From positions 1 through 46,147 of IMG/VR virus record IMGVR_UViG_3300049782_000007: a stretch of 46,147 nt of DNA, one strand, 5' to 3'. This document shows, one piece after another, positions 40,626-46,147 of this stretch. Both the position numbers and the translations under genes were made by a program. The notes under the pieces were generated by a model that had not been told where the DNA came from, made no database searches, and saw only the letters and a list, made by a program, of their open reading frames with translations. The DNA comes from a virus. Taxonomy: Duplodnaviria > Caudoviricetes. Numbering within the stretch: position 1 is the stretch's first letter; the number at the start of each line of letters is the position of its first letter.

Positions 40626-42296
40626 ATGGATCAGATCAGGTGGACCGGTGCTGACGACTCGTCAGAGATCAAATACGTAGACCTACTGTGCCGTAAGTCG
40701 AAAGTACTCTCTGAAGGCGACCGACTACGGGAAGTAAGCACTGACGAACAAGAGCGGCAGGGACGCGCATGGGCCGCACGCAACGGATACACGGTCCGGC
40801 ACGTCTGGCGAGAGCTTGGATCCGCGTACAAGGAGCGACAGCGCAAGGAATTTGAGGGCGCGCTAGAAGCAATCATGTCCGGCAAGTCACAAGCGCTGTG
40901 GGTTTACATGCTGGACCGTTTCTCACGCAAGGGTGCGGAAGATGTCCTCAAGGTCATCGGCAAGGCGCGCGTGATCTTTGACTGGGACCGACTGGACAGC
41001 ATGGACGACCGGGACCGCGAGCGGATCATCAGTGAGGCAGAACGCGCACGTACCTACTCCGCACGTCTGAGTGCCCGCGTAACTGACATCAAGCGCTCAA
41101 ACCGAGATCATGGCGAATGGGTGAGCGGATGGCCGCCATTTGGCCTAGTGGTCGGCAAGGATCGCCACCTGTACCCGGATACTTCCCCGGCCGCCCCCGG
41201 CATGACAGAAACCCGTGCGGACGTGATGAAGGAGCTATTCCGGCTGTCGGCCCTCGGCGCGTCCGCCAAGGACCTTGCCAAAGCCCTTGAAGCAAAGGGA
41301 GTCCCCCACTGCTCGTACAAGGACGGAGAGTGGGTGCCGGATGGAAAGCGGTGGGTCCCTACCACGCTCCGCCGCTGGATTACCAACCCTGTATATGCTG
41401 GATGGCAGATAATCCACCTCAAACCTGAAAACGGAGGTCGAAACAAAACCGTCGTATACCGAAACCCCAGAGGTGAACGGGTACGCGTAATTCCCGAGGG
41501 AATGGAGATAGTGACCGACGAAGAACAGGCAGCGGCCATAGCGGGCAACGGTGCTGAGGGGCGCGCGTTTGACGCTGTCAGGAAGGATGCGAACGGCAAG
41601 GGTCTTCCCTGGGGAGGTTCCACCGGCCCCCGCGAACGAGGAAAGCCGGTACATATCCTCACCGGGCTACTGGAGTGTGATAGCTGCGGCCGGAACATGT
41701 TCTTCACTGGCGAAAGCTACGTGTGTGGTTCCACACAGGGTGGCTCAATCTGCCCAAGACCTGCACGCGTAACCGGCAAGGCCATTGAGCCGTACGTGTT
41801 CCATCGCTGGCGCGCGTACATCACGAACAGCGCCGAAGATGATGACCTGTTGGCAATCATCTCAGAGCGGTGGTCCAAGATCGAGCGTCCCGAGGAAACG
41901 GCCGAAGCTGAACAGGCACGTCGGACGTTCAAGGCTGCGGAGAGAGCTCTGGGCCAACTACTGCAAGACAAACGCGATGGGCTCTATGACGGCCCCGCCG
42001 CACAGTTCTTCCGACCGGCACACAGGAAGGCGGTGGCGGACGTGCAAGAGGCGGAACGAGCACTTGCCGAGTTTGGCGGAATTCGGGTGGATATCTCGTT
42101 CCTCCTGGAACCCGACAAGGTCACCGAGTATTGGGAGAAACTGCACTACAACAAGGCCAAACAGCGCGAACTGCTTGGATGCGTCATCGATCGAATTTAC
42201 GTGAAACCGGCCCCGTACATAGGTGCGCGGTTCGACGGAGAAAAGCGAGTACGCTTCTTGTGGGCAGATGAGAACACGGAAGCGGATGTGAGCTAG
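40626..42296 (+). CDS. int: Large serine integrase
   Basis: LCRKS catalytic Ser, SAYK..R.EFE, LDRFSR, PPFG, NPVYAG recombinase domain, LTGLLECDSCG Zn ribbon, coiled coil. Confidence 0.95.
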   Translation: MDQIRWTGADDSSEIKYVDLLCRKSKVLSEGDRLREVSTDEQERQGRAWAARNGYTVRHVWRELGSAYKERQRKEFEGALEAIMSGKSQALWVYMLDRFSRKGAEDVLKVIGKARVIFDWDRLDSMDDRDRERIISEAERARTYSARLSARVTDIKRSNRDHGEWVSGWPPFGLVVGKDRHLYPDTSPAAPGMTETRADVMKELFRLSALGASAKDLAKALEAKGVPHCSYKDGEWVPDGKRWVPTTLRRWITNPVYAGWQIIHLKPENGGRNKTVVYRNPRGERVRVIPEGMEIVTDEEQAAAIAGNGAEGRAFDAVRKDANGKGLPWGGSTGPRERGKPVHILTGLLECDSCGRNMFFTGESYVCGSTQGGSICPRPARVTGKAIEPYVFHRWRAYITNSAEDDDLLAIISERWSKIERPEETAEAEQARRTFKAAERALGQLLQDKRDGLYDGPAAQFFRPAHRKAVADVQEAERALAEFGGIRVDISFLLEPDKVTEYWEKLHYNKAKQRELLGCVIDRIYVKPAPYIGARFDGEKRVRFLWADENTEADVS

Positions 42297-42306
42297 CCCA
42301 CACCTA

Positions 42307-42346
42307 GGGGCCACAGGGGTTCGCCCTTGTGGCCCCTTTTTTCTTT
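42307..42346 (+). terminator. Intrinsic terminator after the integrase
   Basis: GGGGCCACAGGGG-TTCG-CCCTTGTGGCCCC followed by a T-tract. Confidence 0.85.
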
Positions 42347-42415
42347 GTAGCGCTTTGCGCCAACACAGCGGGGAAGGGATCGACACTCACCGCACCCCCT
42401 CTGACCTGGGACGAT

Positions 42416-42507
42416 GTTGTGAGTGTTGATTCTGATCCCAAGATGAGGTTGCACTATGGAACTCTATAGGCCAACCCAAATCAGGGTTCGCAATCGACAC
42501 TCGACAC
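42416..42507. repeat. 92-bp dyad element, copy 2
   Basis: 67/92 identity to 22461-22552, same orientation. Confidence 0.85.
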
Positions 42508-42526
42508 CCTTCCCCGCTGTCGGCCG

Positions 42527-42542
42527 CTTAACCGACTCACTC
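42527..42542 (+). promoter_or_regulatory. CTTAAC box h (CTTAACCGACTCACTC), candidate tRNA/late promoter
   Basis: Identical to box d; upstream of the tRNA cluster. Confidence 0.7.
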
Positions 42543-42652
42543 TCTAGAGAGTGGCGGGGAGGATGCCGCACGCTTAGCCGGTGGTCTGAGCACTCCCCTG
42601 GCCTACGCGTGGACTCCCGGCCCTCTCCTCCGGTTGAGCCGCGTAGGCCCTT

Positions 42653-42723
42653 GTCCCCGTGGTGTAGCGGCAGCATGACAGGTTCTCACCCTGTCGGTAG
42701 GGGTTCAACTCCCCTCGGGGGTA
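42653..42723 (+). tRNA. tRNA-Glu(CTC)
   Basis: Cloverleaf; ACAGG-TTCTCAC-CCTGT; GGTTCAACTCC. Confidence 0.88.
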
Positions 42724-42773
42724 CGCAGGGAAGACACACTGATTGGCAATTGAGGGTTCTCGACCGGGGTGCG

Positions 42774-42965
42774 TCATGATTCAGGTTGGTTACCTGAATC
42801 AATTCGGTGAATTTGGATAAGGAAGTCTACGTCTGCGATGTGCATGTTCCAGTTTCCATGCTCGCGATAGTGCTTGCGGAAGTGGTCAGCAATGGCGTTG
42901 AGGTCGTAGACTCCTTTCCGGTCCTCTGTTAGTTGTTCTGCAATCCTGTATGCCAAGTCTGTCAT
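42774..42965 (-). CDS. Hypothetical protein (63 aa), leaderless, antisense within the tRNA cluster
   Basis: TACAAT 6 nt before ATG; hairpin 42776-42801. Confidence 0.7.
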   Translation of the reverse strand: MTDLAYRIAEQLTEDRKGVYDLNAIADHFRKHYREHGNWNMHIADVDFLIQIHRIDSGNQPES

Positions 42966-42982
42966 GCTGGAATTGTAGCGTT

Positions 42983-43055
42983 GATTCCGTAGCTCAGTTG
43001 GTAGAGCGGGGGGCTCTTAATCCCCGCGTCGTAGGTTCGAGTCCTACCGGAATCA
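42983..43055 (+). tRNA. tRNA-Lys(CTT)
   Basis: Canonical cloverleaf; loop CTCTTAA. Confidence 0.93.
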
Positions 43056-43057
43056 CT

Positions 43058-43133
43058 TTGCGCGTAGCTCAGTTGGTAGAGCCTCGGTCTGATACACCGA
43101 AGGTCGCCGGTTCAATTCCGGTCGCGCAAACCA
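43058..43133 (+). tRNA. tRNA-Ile(GAT)
   Basis: Loop CTGATAC; encoded CCA. Confidence 0.93.
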
Positions 43134-43136
43134 CGT

Positions 43137-43221
43137 GGAAGGTTGGCAGAGCGGTAATGCGAGGGCTTGCTACGCCCTAGCCGGGTTTCGGCCCGCGTAG
43201 GTTCGATTCCTACACCTTCCG
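43137..43221 (+). tRNA. tRNA-Ser(GCT)
   Basis: Loop TTGCTAC; long variable arm; G73. Confidence 0.9.
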
Positions 43222-43225
43222 CTTT

Positions 43226-43308
43226 GGAAGGTCGGACATTGGCGTGTCAAGCGCTCTTGAAAAGCGTCGGGGGTAAAACCCTTGGGGGTTCGACTCCCCT
43301 ACCTTCCG
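43226..43308 (+). tRNA. tRNA-Ser(TGA)
   Basis: Loop CTTGAAA; long variable arm; G73. Confidence 0.88.
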
Positions 43309-43313
43309 CATAT

Positions 43314-43386
43314 GCGTTGTTGGCCAAGTGGTTAAGGCACTCGGTTGTCAACCGAGAAATCGCCGGTTCGAATCCGGTACAGCGCG
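43314..43386 (+). tRNA. tRNA-Asp(GTC)
   Basis: Loop TTGTCAA; G73. Confidence 0.92.
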
Positions 43387-43387
43387 C

Positions 43388-43463
43388 GTTGACGGTAGCT
43401 CAATGGTTAGAGCGCTGGGTTGTGATCCCGGTGGTGCGGGTTCGAGTCCCGTCCGTCACCCCA
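43388..43463 (+). tRNA. tRNA-His(GTG)
   Basis: Loop TTGTGAT; G-1:C73; encoded CCA. Confidence 0.9.
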
Positions 43464-43467
43464 CGTG

Positions 43468-43505
43468 CAAAAGGACCCGCCCCTGAGAGGGAACGGGTCC
43501 TTTTG
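43468..43505. terminator. Bidirectional terminator
   Basis: CAAAAGGACCCG...CGGGTCCTTTTG. Confidence 0.8.
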
Positions 43506-43506
43506 C

Positions 43507-43671
43507 TCAGCTCACTGTAAGGGGACTACCGATATACACGGTCCACCCCTTTTCCGCCCCTCCCCACGATCCGGGTGGGACGGTTCCGGCTACGGCCGGG
43601 ATCCCATTTTTGCGTAGTTCGCTCGCTTCACGACGGGCATCTTCCATACTCATCAAAGGTTCGGTTTCCAC
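43507..43671 (-). CDS. Hypothetical protein (54 aa), antisense within the tRNA cluster
   Basis: GTG start with AAAAGG RBS; TG-A-TAAAAT -10 abutting tRNA-Ala. Confidence 0.6.
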   Translation of the reverse strand: METEPLMSMEDARREASELRKNGIPAVAGTVPPGSWGGAEKGWTVYIGSPLTVS

Positions 43672-43707
43672 GCTGCGCCTTTCTGTTGGGTGGGTACATT
43701 TTATCAC

Positions 43708-43778
43708 GGGCCTCGTGATGTAACGGTAGCATTCCACCCTTGCAAGGTGGCTGAGCGGTTCGATTCCGACGGGGTCCA
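43708..43778 (+). tRNA. tRNA-Ala(TGC)
   Basis: Loop CTTGCAA; G3:U70; irregular T-arm. Confidence 0.8.
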
Positions 43779-43780
43779 CT

Positions 43781-43877
43781 GGCGTTGAGCTAGAGAGAAT
43801 ACCGGCAACGGGTGCGCAACCGACCGGGAAGGTATCTGGCGAATGGGTGTGGCCTGCAAAGTCCCCCTACGCCACCA
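43781..43877 (+). ncRNA. Aberrant tRNA-like RNA A (acceptor stem plus ACCA, no canonical T-loop)
   Basis: GGCGT.G/C.ACGCC-A-CCA ends; fills the space between tRNA-Ala and tRNA-Val exactly. Confidence 0.5.
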
Positions 43878-43950
43878 TGGCGCGTAGCTCAATTGGAAGA
43901 GCACCACTCTTACAAAGTGGGGGTTGTCGGTTCGAGTCCGACCGGGCCAA
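43878..43950 (+). tRNA. tRNA-Val(TAC)
   Basis: Loop CTTACAA; one acceptor mismatch. Confidence 0.9.
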
Positions 43951-43958
43951 CTCCGACA

Positions 43959-43972
43959 TAGGAACGTTCCTA
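43959..43972. repeat. Palindrome copy 23 (between tRNA-Val and tRNA-Asn)
   Basis: Exact match. Confidence 0.95.
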
Positions 43973-43980
43973 CGTCGCAA

Positions 43981-44053
43981 TGACGCGTAGCACAATTGGC
44001 AGTGTAACCGGTTGTTACCCGGTTAGGTACAGGTTCGAATCCTGTCGTGTCAG
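43981..44053 (+). tRNA. tRNA-Asn(GTT)
   Basis: Loop TTGTTAC; G73. Confidence 0.9.
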
Positions 44054-44055
44054 CT

Positions 44056-44130
44056 CTGACGGTAGCTTAACGGCAAAGCGTGAGTCTCATAAGCTCAGAG
44101 ATGCGGGTTCGAGTCCCGTCCGTCAAACCA
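44056..44130 (+). tRNA. tRNA-Met(CAT) with initiator-like C1xA72 mismatch
   Basis: Loop CTCATAA; encoded CCA. Confidence 0.88.
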
Positions 44131-44205
44131 TGCCGTATAGCATAACGGGATAGTGCACTTGGCTACGAACCAAGGTTGGTGGGGGTTCGAATCCCTCTAC
44201 GGCAG
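44131..44205 (+). tRNA. tRNA-Arg(ACG)
   Basis: Loop CTACGAA. Confidence 0.9.
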
Positions 44206-44247
44206 CAACGGCGACAATAGCGCTTGGCCGCGCAACGATAGCCGCTA

Positions 44248-44345
44248 GCGTACGGGGTGTGTCTGCATTCCGGCCCCGAGTACCCGCTGACTAGCCATCA
44301 CGGGGAAACGGGCGGGCGGTGCTGGTTGAAATCCGGCCGTACGCG
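44248..44345 (+). ncRNA. Aberrant tRNA-like RNA B (perfect acceptor and T-arm, non-canonical core)
   Basis: GCGTACG/CGTACGC; GCTGG-TTGAAAT-CCGGC. Confidence 0.6.
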
Positions 44346-44348
44346 CTA

Positions 44349-44423
44349 TGGGACGTGGTGTGAAATGGAAGCACGCCCCGACTCCAAATCGGGGAGGCGT
44401 AGGTTCGATTCCTACCGGCTCAG
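44349..44423 (+). tRNA. tRNA-Trp(CCA)
   Basis: Loop CTCCAAA; G73. Confidence 0.88.
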
Positions 44424-44427
44424 CAAG

Positions 44428-44511
44428 GGCGCAGGGTAGACCGCTGGGTAGCGGAGCGGGTTCTATAGCCCGTGGTTGGCCTCCGGGGGTTCGAGTCCCT
44501 GCCTAGCGCCT
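44428..44511 (+). tRNA. Atypical tRNA with probable CTA (amber) anticodon
   Basis: GCGGG-TTCTATAG-CCCGT arm, GGTTCGAGTCC T-arm, bulged acceptor. Confidence 0.6.
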
Positions 44512-44518
44512 TGGCCAT

Positions 44519-44590
44519 GCCGCTCTAGCTCAACTGGCAGAGCTACGGGGTGAAATCCCGTGCGTGGGGGTTCGATTCCCTCGGGTGGCA
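44519..44590 (+). tRNA. tRNA-Phe(GAA)
   Basis: Loop GTGAAAT. Confidence 0.9.
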
Positions 44591-44594
44591 CTTT

Positions 44595-44677
44595 GGATGG
44601 CCGACGACGTTGGAGGGTCGTAGCGGGCTGTAAACCCGCCGCTGTATGCCTAGGGGGTTCGAATCCCTCGCCATCCA
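44595..44677 (+). tRNA. tRNA-Tyr(GTA)
   Basis: Loop CTGTAAA; long variable arm. Confidence 0.9.
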
Positions 44678-44707
44678 CGCTGCGCAAGTCTGACGGCTTG
44701 CGTTTAT

Positions 44708-44781
44708 GCCCGCATAGGCAAAATGGTAAAGCCAGCGCGCTTAGAACGCGTTGTTTGGGGGTTCGAATCCCTCTGCGGGTA
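44708..44781 (+). tRNA. tRNA-Leu(TAG) with short variable loop
   Basis: Loop CTTAGAA; A73; 5-nt variable region. Confidence 0.85.
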
Positions 44782-44828
44782 CGTCGCTGCGCAAGGAAAG
44801 ACCCGGAGAAGGTTCTTTGCGTAGTCTG

Positions 44829-44902
44829 GCCTCATTAGCTCAAATGGCTAGAGCGCCCGTTTCGTAATCGGGAGGTTGCGGGTTCGATTCCTGCATGGGG
44901 CC
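44829..44902 (+). tRNA. tRNA-Thr(CGT)
   Basis: Loop TTCGTAA. Confidence 0.9.
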
Positions 44903-44921
44903 CTTGCGCTGTTGCGCTCTT

Positions 44922-44993
44922 TCTCCGCTGGTGTAATCGGCAACACACGGGGCTCTGAACCCCGAATACGAGGTTCGAATCCTTGGCGGAGAG
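44922..44993 (+). tRNA. tRNA-Gln(CTG)
   Basis: Loop CTCTGAA; U1:A72, G73. Confidence 0.92.
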
Positions 44994-44995
44994 CA

Positions 44996-45026
44996 GAGAA
45001 CCCTCGGCATTGCACCGAGGGTTCTC
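44996..45026. terminator. Hairpin terminator
   Basis: GAGAACCCTCGG...CCGAGGGTTCTC. Confidence 0.75.
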
Positions 45027-45038
45027 CCCATTTGTCGA

Positions 45039-45239
45039 TCAGGTTTCGAGATGATCGAGTAGGGCAAGGCAGTCCAGAAGTGCGTTCAATCTATCGGCCG
45101 CTGATTTGAATTCGTTTGCATCGGGTGGTCCTTGTCCGATGCGGTTGAACAGAAGCCTGTCTAGCGCTTCCGGCGCATCTTCGGGGTCAAGAGCGTTATA
45201 CAGCCGCTCCATTTCTTCCGCCGTGTATCTCCTAGGCAT
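45039..45239 (-). CDS. Hypothetical protein (66 aa), antisense
   Basis: ORF ending near a hairpin; probably leaderless. Confidence 0.65.
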   Translation of the reverse strand: MPRRYTAEEMERLYNALDPEDAPEALDRLLFNRIGQGPPDANEFKSAADRLNALLDCLALLDHLET

Positions 45240-45337
45240 GGCGCAAGTTTGACAATCCCTTGTGTCGTTGTCTGGCTTTCTGGGAAACCAATTAGTCGCA
45301 TCTCGATAGCAGAGCCACGGTTTTCCGAGGGTCGTTT

Positions 45338-45583
45338 TTACAATCCGAAGCGCTTTCGCAGCTCAGCCGCAGTCATTCCTTTGGACGCACGGAGCACACG
45401 GACTTCCGCTTTGCGGTCTTCGGAATTTCCCGTAGTAGCCCAGACGGCCCATGCGAGATGATCTGTTCGGCCACAAGCGTGAAGCAGCACCGTACCTTCC
45501 GCCGATGAAACCTCGTAGAGACTTTCGGTTTCGCAGTCTCCCAGCGGAGGTTTTGCGAAACGGCAATTTGTTTTATCGGTCAC
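45338..45583 (-). CDS. Hypothetical protein (81 aa), leaderless, antisense
   Basis: TG-C-TACCAT 6 nt before GTG 45583. Confidence 0.65.
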   Translation of the reverse strand: MTDKTNCRFAKPPLGDCETESLYEVSSAEGTVLLHACGRTDHLAWAVWATTGNSEDRKAEVRVLRASKGMTAAELRKRFGL

Positions 45584-45607
45584 CTTGGCATGGTAGCACA
45601 AGATCAA

Positions 45608-45679
45608 CTGGAACTAGCTTAACGGTAGAGCACTCGGTTTGGGACCGAGGTGGTGGGGGTTCGATTCCCTCGTTCCGGA
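45608..45679 (+). tRNA. tRNA-Pro(TGG)
   Basis: Loop TTTGGGA; C1:G72, A73. Confidence 0.92.
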
Positions 45680-45688
45680 CTTTTGACA

Positions 45689-45702
45689 TAGGAACGTTCC
45701 TA
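45689..45702. repeat. Palindrome copy 24 (overlaps AGGAGG RBS of the HNH gene)
   Basis: Exact match. Confidence 0.95.
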
Positions 45703-45716
45703 GGAGGAAGCCCGCT

Positions 45717-46031
45717 ATGGCTTGGTCATCCTCGAACAGGCGTTCTGAACTGCCCCGCAATTGGGCCGTCATTCGTCAGCGAGTGATTCGCAGGGACGGG
45801 GGTCATTGCAAGGGCCTCCTAGAGGGAGGCCGTGTATGTGGCGCCCCAGGTACAGACGTAGACCACATCAGGCCCGGTGCTGACCACAGCCTAGGCAACC
45901 TACAGTTGCTGTGCGCATGGTGCCACAAGCGCAAGACGCAGGCCGAGTCAAGGGCCGCGCGTTCTTTCAAGCCGAGGCCACCAGCGATCATCCCCCGTGC
46001 CTCTCGGGAGACCACGCCCGACCCTTGGTGA
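45717..46031 (+). CDS. HNH endonuclease (terminase/cos-associated type)
   Basis: LPRNW..R..V..RD...C...DVDHI..G.DHS..NLQLLC.WCHKRKT; last gene before the end. Confidence 0.9.
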   Translation: MAWSSSNRRSELPRNWAVIRQRVIRRDGGHCKGLLEGGRVCGAPGTDVDHIRPGADHSLGNLQLLCAWCHKRKTQAESRAARSFKPRPPAIIPRASRETTPDPW

Positions 46032-46147
46032 CACGCTGTCGCTTGCTGTGCTTGAGATCATCACAAGCGTGGTCACGCAGCGTGGCAGCCAGCCTCAGTT
46101 CGCCTTCTTTTTGAAGGGAAAAGGGTGGGGAGGGGCCCCTTTTTGGA

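Follow-up and report, generated by a model that had tools for sequence, protein, structure and literature searches.

The window, as we call the whole stretch of DNA analysed here (46,147 nucleotides), is a complete virus record of 46 kb. It carries genes for a terminase, portal, tail proteins, primase, polymerase and integrase, and a terminal HNH gene; the integrase is a serine integrase by annotation in relatives. A search based on the integrase gave no relative. The cultured phages closest in the tRNA region are the Streptomyces phages Shaeky, Sycamore and Shady. ARAGORN called 19 tRNAs at 42653-45680, and those for Gly, as stated in an earlier note on this DNA, and for Cys are absent. No sigma-70-type promoter was found in 42250-46147. 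The element under study lies between tRNA-Arg(ACG) (44131-44206, plus strand) and tRNA-Trp(CCA) (44349-44424, plus strand), and ARAGORN made no tRNA call on it. The same DNA is present, without differences, in contigs of two further soil runs (X5, 43934-44339; X6, 44151-44301), and an assembly error was therefore excluded. In Shaeky, for which the genome paper reports 16 tRNAs and no other RNA (PMC8407747), the Arg-Trp slot is an unannotated gap, and Shady has another such gap between tRNA-Asp and tRNA-Phe; both gaps have blocks in common with the window, but without an acceptor or T-arm. The closest relative, with an HNH gene 86% identical, has a tRNA-Gly and carries a compact form of the element in the same Arg-Trp slot.

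Several other features of the array were recorded. Just 5' of the first tRNA, 42560-42652 is conserved, at 77-92% identity, in Shaeky, Sycamore, L031 and L200, and similar sequence lies ahead of tRNA-Thr in phiC31 and of tRNA-Asp in Shawty; the element may be a leader RNA that follows a late promoter specific to the phage. The perfect 14-bp palindrome TAGGAACGTTCCTA occurs at 24 sites in the window, from 1609 to 45689, many of them near gene boundaries and two in the tRNA array (43959 and 45689), and is likely a repressor operator or stoperator. Between tRNA-His and tRNA-Ala the array is interrupted by 240 nt (43464-43707) with hairpins and terminator-like sites, an interruption absent in Shaeky and L031. 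A small structured spacer RNA that recurs in related arrays between tRNA-Ala or tRNA-Val and the tRNA that follows (L001:3279-3335, L002:3529-3592, L162:657-719, L185:284-355) is absent from the matching slot of the window. A tRNA-like RNA at 44428-44512 was missed by ARAGORN; it has CUA at the anticodon position, possibly as an amber reader, and gives a weak match to a tRNA-Sec model (E 0.0014), with similar stretches in L018, L019 and L339. Finally, RNAs of about 80 nt that look like the tRNA-like domain of tmRNA without the mRNA part were seen in Shaeky, where they are unannotated (L001:3933-4013, plus strand), and between tRNA-Phe and tRNA-Tyr in L031 and L199. They have a G3-U70 pair and could be SmpB or alanylation decoys.

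The earlier note had described positions 44248-44345 as a tRNA-like RNA. This extent proved too short: the 98 nt make up the rear two-thirds of an element of 140 bases (44209-44348, plus strand, as for all parts given below) that starts 39 nt earlier, fills the gap between tRNA-Arg and tRNA-Trp and has a tRNA-shelled form. The limits follow the ARAGORN gap and two models: the covariance model R1, built without the window, and R2, whose match to the window is one to a member of its own training set. When R1 was run over the 46-kb window, rank 1 was 44270-44315 (E 0.0015) and rank 2 was 44209-44244 (E 0.1), in the right order. The RNA flagged earlier therefore belongs to a family member of 140 nt, of which it is the 3' portion. 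The added 5' hairpin, P1 (44209-44244), agrees between the R1 match, the local MFE and covariation. It consists of 4 bp, a symmetric 7x7 internal loop (44213-44219/44234-44240), which is loop-E-like and presumably resembles loop E of bacterial 5S rRNA, and a further 4 bp. Its terminal loop, L1 (UUGGCC, 44224-44229), is complementary at 44225-44228 to a second loop, L4.

The 7-bp acceptor and the T-arm described earlier were both there. The acceptor-like 5' strand (44248-44254) forms Watson-Crick pairs with 44338-44344 in a stem flanked by A44247 and G44345; the 3' strand and what follows it (44338-44348) include a G at the discriminator position and a 3-nt tail that abuts tRNA-Trp. The T-arm-like hairpin (44321-44337) has a 5-bp stem (44321-44325/44333-44337) and a UUGAAAU loop (44326-44332) in which G replaces C56. 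This odd T-loop may be explained by pairing of position 19 with 56, C44263 in the D-arm-like hairpin (44256-44269) being the putative partner of G44328, with position 19 assigned by eye. In the place of the anticodon arm is an extended arm of about 46 nt in total (44270-44315), 17-19 steps long as against 5 bp in tRNA, which is the best R1 match in the window and shows covariation. Its helices P3 (44270-44276/44310-44315) and P4 (44283-44290/44298-44304), both homologue-supported pairings, are joined by an AGUA/GAA motif (44279-44282/44305-44308), which we take to be a loop E, and the arm is closed by L4 (CUAGCCA, 44291-44297), complementary to L1 at 44294-44297. The hairpin of 3 bp with the CUAGCCA loop was thus seen correctly before. 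The two inner stems drawn with it can be formed, and one of them occurs in the MFE of the 98-nt piece, but homologues favour P3, P4 and the small D-like hairpin.

When the Arg-Trp gap was shuffled 20,000 times with its dinucleotides preserved, an acceptor and T-arm in tRNA register arose only once, and in shuffled 46-kb strands such a shell arose 0.02 times per strand. Eight such shells occur in the window, and the other seven are ARAGORN tRNAs. The acceptor and T-arm shell of the window is not due to chance. A translational tRNA was rejected nonetheless: the acceptor of 7 bp and T stem of 5 bp fit, but no 5-bp anticodon stem with a 7-nt loop directly follows the D arm. Rfam gave no match over 44209-44348 even at E up to 10.

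Folding energies were also calculated. The 98-nt piece folded no better than its shuffles (z -0.27), with a pair probability of only about 0.1 for the T stem. At full length the MFE of the window copy was -58.0 kcal/mol (z 0.05) and the family fold, a different one, reached -51.5 kcal/mol, with pair probabilities near 0 for P1, the acceptor and the T stem, in a comparison that gives no credit to loop-E, elbow or kissing contacts. Elsewhere in the family the predictions were near the model for compact L018 (z -2.9) and for shelled L335 and L344, and partly so for permuted L280. The family could be functional and the window copy a recombinant or decaying member that has a compact-type P3 inside a tRNA shell and misfolds in practice. 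The 6.5 kcal/mol that separate the family fold from the MFE would fit such a copy, as would its R1 scores of only 19 and 13 bits, obtained as two fragments, and the compact form in the Arg-Trp slot of the closest relative. We regard it as very unlikely, however, in view of the helices of the family fold, every one of which can pair in the window copy, of the identical sequence in the other soil runs, and of the changes themselves, which hit both partners of the proposed loop contact, both acceptor strands and, putatively, the 19:56 pair.

A blastn search of the window element against 50,697 phage records gave nothing at E 10, and its homology surfaced only via synteny and sequence patterns. 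The patterns were made from the blocks that the gaps of Shaeky and Shady share with the window. In IMG/VR, 29 of 31 loci from a pattern search were real, and later searches gave more. In GTDB 4 of 19 loci were real, all under Streptomyces titles, as were 4 of 15 from metagenomes. Chance matches were dropped before counting (2/31; 13/53 distinct; 15/19; 11/15; 24/36 distinct; 6/13), and those of them that were tested with R1 scored at most 21 bits, compared with 82-113 bits for members. Blastn added Shawty and Rowa, and the cultured Streptomyces phages with compact copies are Shaeky, Shady, Shawty and Rowa. The family was not found in the stretches of phiC31 and Sycamore that were searched; given its absence from these related phages, the element is accessory. 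Plasmids searched for a compact copy gave nothing, and R2, run over 150 sampled genomes of the genus Streptomyces, found nothing beyond the centre genome (1/151). A pattern scan of 401 genomes had a match level below that of the reversed control (36 genomes); 25 of its 37 matches and one more region were scored with R2, and two were real.

In total 64 distinct compact copies were collected. Their structure, derived from 40 distinct copies, has two hairpins: P1, which closes on an N-UGAC-Y loop, and, after a 2-nt link, a long arm made of P2, a GAAA/CGAGUA loop, P3 (in which one G is bulged), P4 and a CUAGUCA loop. A 4-nt tail, AA last, forms the 3' end. Double changes were seen in 15 of 31 pairs, a number reached by 0 of 500 shuffles, in a control that ignores the relatedness of the copies; controls with slid pairings were lower. 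Bases fixed in the search patterns are invariant by construction, and several of the invariant positions are affected by this. The loop-E-like loop of P1 was present in 20 of the 40 compact copies found without selecting on that loop, and replaced in the other 20; the upper AGUA/GAA motif was present in only 14 of 64.

Two further layouts were revealed by a pattern for the P1 hairpin alone, which returned 58 loci. The first is the tRNA-shelled layout, to which the window belongs. P1 is joined by a link of 1-3 nt to a stem resembling an acceptor; next come a D-like hairpin, a long AGUA/GAA arm, with a CUAGUCA loop in the homologues, and a T-arm. One follow-up pattern search for such copies was real in 7 of 13 cases, with six distinct homologues at that stage, and eight homologues are now in hand. 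All eight keep acceptor-, D- and T-like arms, and 23 of 39 pairs in an alignment of seven rows have double changes (0 of 500 shuffles reach this; slid controls are lower), with L337 left out of it as near-duplicate or truncated. R2 gave 120 and 54 bits to two shelled copies from Streptomyces-genus genomes outside its training set. The acceptors measure 4-6 bp in the homologues and 7 bp in the window only, and acceptor plus T usually come to about 10 bp. With position 19 assigned by eye, the 19:56 pair reads six times as G-C and once as A-U, whereas the window has C-G and L354, whose T-loop is degenerate, has a mismatch; a tRNA-like elbow is kept in 8 of the 9 shelled copies. The claim that the RNA is tRNA-shaped and under structural selection is borne out by these homologues. 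The random decay named earlier as its refutation was not seen; compensatory changes were found instead, and the objection therefore fails.

In the second of these layouts the order is circularly permuted, with the CUAGUCA hairpin first and P1 second. The 12 distinct copies come from other phages, on contigs of 5-259 kb whose G+C is lower. Most are close to tRNAs, and inverted-repeat stems often flank them; the first of these copies were found without selecting on CUAGUCA. Among 10 aligned copies, L285 and L318 being omitted as near-duplicate or truncated, 13 of 20 pairs have double changes, again reached by 0 of 500 shuffles and with lower slid controls. By blastn a permuted copy matched Shaeky and Shawty at 82% over 45 nt. 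As a separate observation, arrays of long inverted-repeat stems surround the permuted copies of L141, L150, L160, L149 and L180 next to tRNAs; each stem encloses a different insert of 60-120 nt, and these may be processing stems that release several small RNAs. The three layouts together count 85 copies (compact 64, tRNA-shelled 9, permuted 12), of which 76 have no tRNA shell. Rfam had no match for compact, shelled or permuted copies, and no description of the family was found in Rfam 15 or in the literature searched. Its motifs were absent from the portion of the supplements of PMC10690425 covered by the search, as were five contig ids from one file, and the family may be one of the 10,006 candidates of that source, the largest phage RNA screen. 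The phage RNA family is real and, apparently, undescribed, with three natural architectures.

The placement of the compact copies raises the question of a self-cleaving or processing ribozyme that would trim the 3' trailer of the upstream tRNA. Fifty-nine of the 64 lie directly behind a tRNA or T-arm, as the theta ribozymes do at the 3' ends of phage tRNA genes (PMC10879173), and in 46 of 64 a tRNA starts at most 12 nt downstream. Fifty-three copies allowed the spacer between the tRNA discriminator and P1 to be measured, and in 52 of them its length is 2-4 nt. Circular permutation and a kissing contact like that of the VS ribozyme, both seen or proposed in the family, are typical of small ribozymes. 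Against this, the discriminator-P1 junctions have 28 different patterns over that variable spacer and no conserved cut site, five compact copies have no upstream tRNA, and the permuted form starts with the other hairpin, with no ARAGORN tRNA in the 500-nt upstream flank of 7 of its 12 copies. The GAAA/CGAGUA loop, conserved in the compact form, is absent from the shelled one, and neither an HDV-like nested double pseudoknot nor an Rfam ribozyme match was found. A ribozyme is improbable on this evidence.

The two terminal loops were nearly invariant. L1 contains GAC in all 64 compact copies, and L4 is CUAGUCA in 56, CUAGUCC in 5, CUUGUCA in 1; in the last 2 the loop has 8 nt and contains GUU. 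The partner triplet is thus GUC in 62 of 64 and a wobbling GUU in two; all eight other shelled copies have GUC. The window alone has GGC in L1, where every other copy has GAC, and GCC in L4, a change of exactly both partner bases that turns an A-U into a G-C pair. A second GGC/GCC copy was not found, as the five matches of a window-specific pattern search were all due to chance. The loops are spaced about 47 nt apart in both the compact and the permuted form: 62 of 64 compact copies have 46-49 nt between L1 and L4, and all 12 permuted ones have 45-48 nt between L4 and L1, narrower than the ranges of 13-31 nt which the search patterns permitted. A shorter P1 that exactly offsets the longer acceptor of the window was considered and rejected: L1 to acceptor is 19 nt, as elsewhere, and the window is 2-4 nt longer beyond. 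A U-N-R triplet is present in all L1 and L4 loops, and the sequence pattern of a double U-turn with three Watson-Crick pairs fits all copies. From their complementarity and their joint change in the window, L1 and L4 probably pair as kissing loops; the loop covariation behind this consists of the single double change of the window and of a wobble shared by two near-identical copies, and binding of an outside partner could equally explain loops that are nearly invariant.

The earlier note had pointed to the same GCC and to the missing Gly. On that reading the RNA would be a repurposed mimic of tRNA-Gly whose top half, of 12 bp, is retained for RNase P and for the addition of CCA, and its partner, RNA A, would mimic Cys. 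RNA A (43781-43877) lies between tRNAs as well and is likewise conserved; it has about 90-97 nt, is closed by a short terminal stem and ends near CCA; its relatives in two other phages (L019:1222-1338, minus strand; L332:665-780, plus strand) are 81-84% identical over the 5' 68 nt, and it has no Rfam match. The top half of 7 plus 5 bp in the window, with G1-C72, C2-G71 and G3-C70, and the lack of Gly and Cys tRNAs in the array suit such a mimic. The identity elements of tRNA-Gly are a U73 discriminator (in bacteria) and CC at anticodon positions 35-36 in register, however, and the window has G44345 at the discriminator and AGC at positions 34-36, AGU in homologues. GCC is private to the window. 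The top half is not conserved either, with acceptors of 4-6 bp in the homologues and no T-arm in any of the 64 compact and 12 permuted copies, and a real tRNA-Gly lies near 4 of 64 compact and 1 of 8 shelled loci screened in their flanks, including the closest relative. Nor does the pair hold up: RNA A occurs in only two distinct contigs among all loci fetched, and the Cys-like hairpin is missing in both and present only in the window. A glycine mimic is extremely improbable.

The explanation we tentatively put first, while holding it somewhat below an even chance, is a stable RNA that would be released by tRNA processing and form oligomers through kissing between molecules, with the tRNA elbow as an exchangeable corner. 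The element is likely transcribed with the tRNA array. Trimming of the 3' end of tRNA-Arg would give the 5' end of the RNA, and 5' processing of tRNA-Trp by RNase P its 3' end. Established tRNA processing would cut at both flanking tRNAs, and we infer with good confidence that the RNA is transcribed and released in this way. L1 and L4 would then kiss. Since only 1-3 nt separate P1 from the next helix, P1 probably stacks there, directed away from L4. If the arm runs straight in a tRNA-like L, the distance between L4 and the acceptor end comes to about 100 Å, compared with a reach of about 50-56 Å for P1 (rough values from assumed dimensions), so that a head-on kiss within one molecule seems out of reach. 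This rough geometry presumes a rigid elbow and straight arms, and the internal loops of the compact and permuted forms could bend for an intramolecular kiss. Given that the loops pair, a kiss between molecules is thus only slightly the better bet. If it occurs, the fixed arm length would lead to rings, in which neighbouring molecules would join head to tail and the tRNA-like elbow would serve as an exchangeable corner piece, and the result could be a structural particle as in GOLLD, ROOL or phi29 pRNA that holds some cargo or protein.

A monomeric, compact RNA is the principal alternative, with an intramolecular kiss or none, which would act as a decoy or sponge for some host protein specific for tRNA or loop-E RNA, such as an anticodon nuclease, RNase P, Rel or bL25/Ctc. 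L4 resembles the anticodon loop of tRNA-Asp (in the window, of tRNA-Gly) shifted by one base, and L1 reads as the matching codon. The near-invariance of the loops across very different phages, the 7x7 loop of P1, likened to loop E of 5S rRNA and found in all three layouts, the elbow kept in nearly all shelled copies and the presence in the same arrays of other mimic-like RNAs (the short tmRNA-like ones) are all in keeping with a decoy. Yet half of the unselected compact copies have something else in place of the loop-E-like loop, few have the AGUA/GAA motif, most of the family does without the tRNA shell, and the joint change of both loops in the window points to L1 and L4 as mutual partners. 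The decoy is an unlikely reading for us. In the oligomer reading, the family may be a natural RNA tecton of about 110-140 nt, present in several phage lineages, in which two arms, their total length fixed, end in complementary U-turn loops and close a small polygon. Its corner would be provided by a tRNA elbow, by a bend at an internal loop or by circular permutation; this we consider doubtful.

The function of stable RNAs in phage tRNA clusters (T4, T5, GOLLD, ROOL) is a long-open question. The family is small and its conservation strong. Because it is carried by four cultured Streptomyces phages and missing from close relatives (phiC31), its function can be tested directly. The three interconvertible natural layouts single out the two loops, with the distance between them, as the core that does the work, a tRNA elbow is seen swapped in and out of another RNA, and the GGC/GCC of the window is a ready-made compensatory pair for the kiss. 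If the tecton is true, tRNA arrays would contain no smaller known natural ring made of RNA alone, and a tRNA fold would have been taken over for use as a building corner and nothing else.

Among known systems, the shelled form shares acceptor-, D- and T-like arms with tRNA-Gly, allo-tRNAs, YrlA and the tRNA-like domain of tmRNA. It differs from canonical tRNA in its integral 5' hairpin and its much longer arm. YrlA was rejected (no RF02553 match over the element; the T arm precedes the D arm there and follows it here), and so was tmRNA, as the Rfam tmRNA model does not call the element. The kiss of the Neurospora VS ribozyme pairs the triplet GUC with loop V. This I/V kiss is a double U-turn of two U-turn loops with three Watson-Crick pairs, in which loop V reads U-G-A-C-U (U696-G697-A698-C699) and the helices stack nearly end to end, at 127-175 degrees (PMC5573960). 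L1 of the family has the letters of VS loop V. In contrast to the VS ribozyme, the family has no conserved counterparts of its G638 substrate loop and A756 loop and lacks its two three-way junctions; no conserved internal loop lies under L4, and the compact form has no junctions. Membership was rejected, the likeness being limited to the kissing motif. The theta ribozymes, which are minimal HDV-like ribozymes, are similar in that compact copies of the family start within 5 nt of a tRNA 3' end, but the family has no HDV fold or J4/2 cytosine context, has other hosts and occurs also in permuted and shelled forms. Theta/HDV membership was rejected: the structure supported by covariation is two separate hairpins, and Rfam gave no HDV-like match. 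Hairpin, twister, pistol and hammerhead ribozymes were considered and rejected too.

Parallels in genomic setting are the stable RNAs of 100-145 nt inside the tRNA clusters of T5 (RNA1, RNA2 and RNA I/III/IV) and T4 (species 1 and 2, rnaC and rnaD), whose niche the family fills. RNA1 and RNA2 of T5 are annotated as tRNA-like, and RNA1 can be read as a tRNA shell whose anticodon position is occupied by a long arm. Homology to rnaC/rnaD or to the T5 RNAs was rejected for want of a significant model match: on the cluster RNAs R1 gave at best E 1.5, R2 gave only E 0.037, on the tRNA-Ser of T5, and the T4 and T5 stretches read have no pair of P1 and CUAGUCA. Phi29 pRNA is a small phage RNA in which two complementary loops join neighbours into a ring. 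It belongs to phi29-like podoviruses, whereas the family is accessory in siphophages that encode a terminase, and a link to packaging genes was not seen. pRNA is named as a natural RNA multimer in 10.1101/2024.12.08.627333. GOLLD and ROOL are often near phage tRNA islands and were shown by cryo-EM to form RNA-only cages through intermolecular kissing loops (10.1101/2024.12.08.627333; PMC5737381). Membership in either was rejected, with no covariance-model match and too small a size: GOLLD and ROOL have several hundred nucleotides and many pseudoknots, the present family 105-140 nt and two hairpins. Like them, however, it sits in phage tRNA arrays, and the oligomers seen there by cryo-EM are suggested here by loop complementarity, spacing and a rough geometry.
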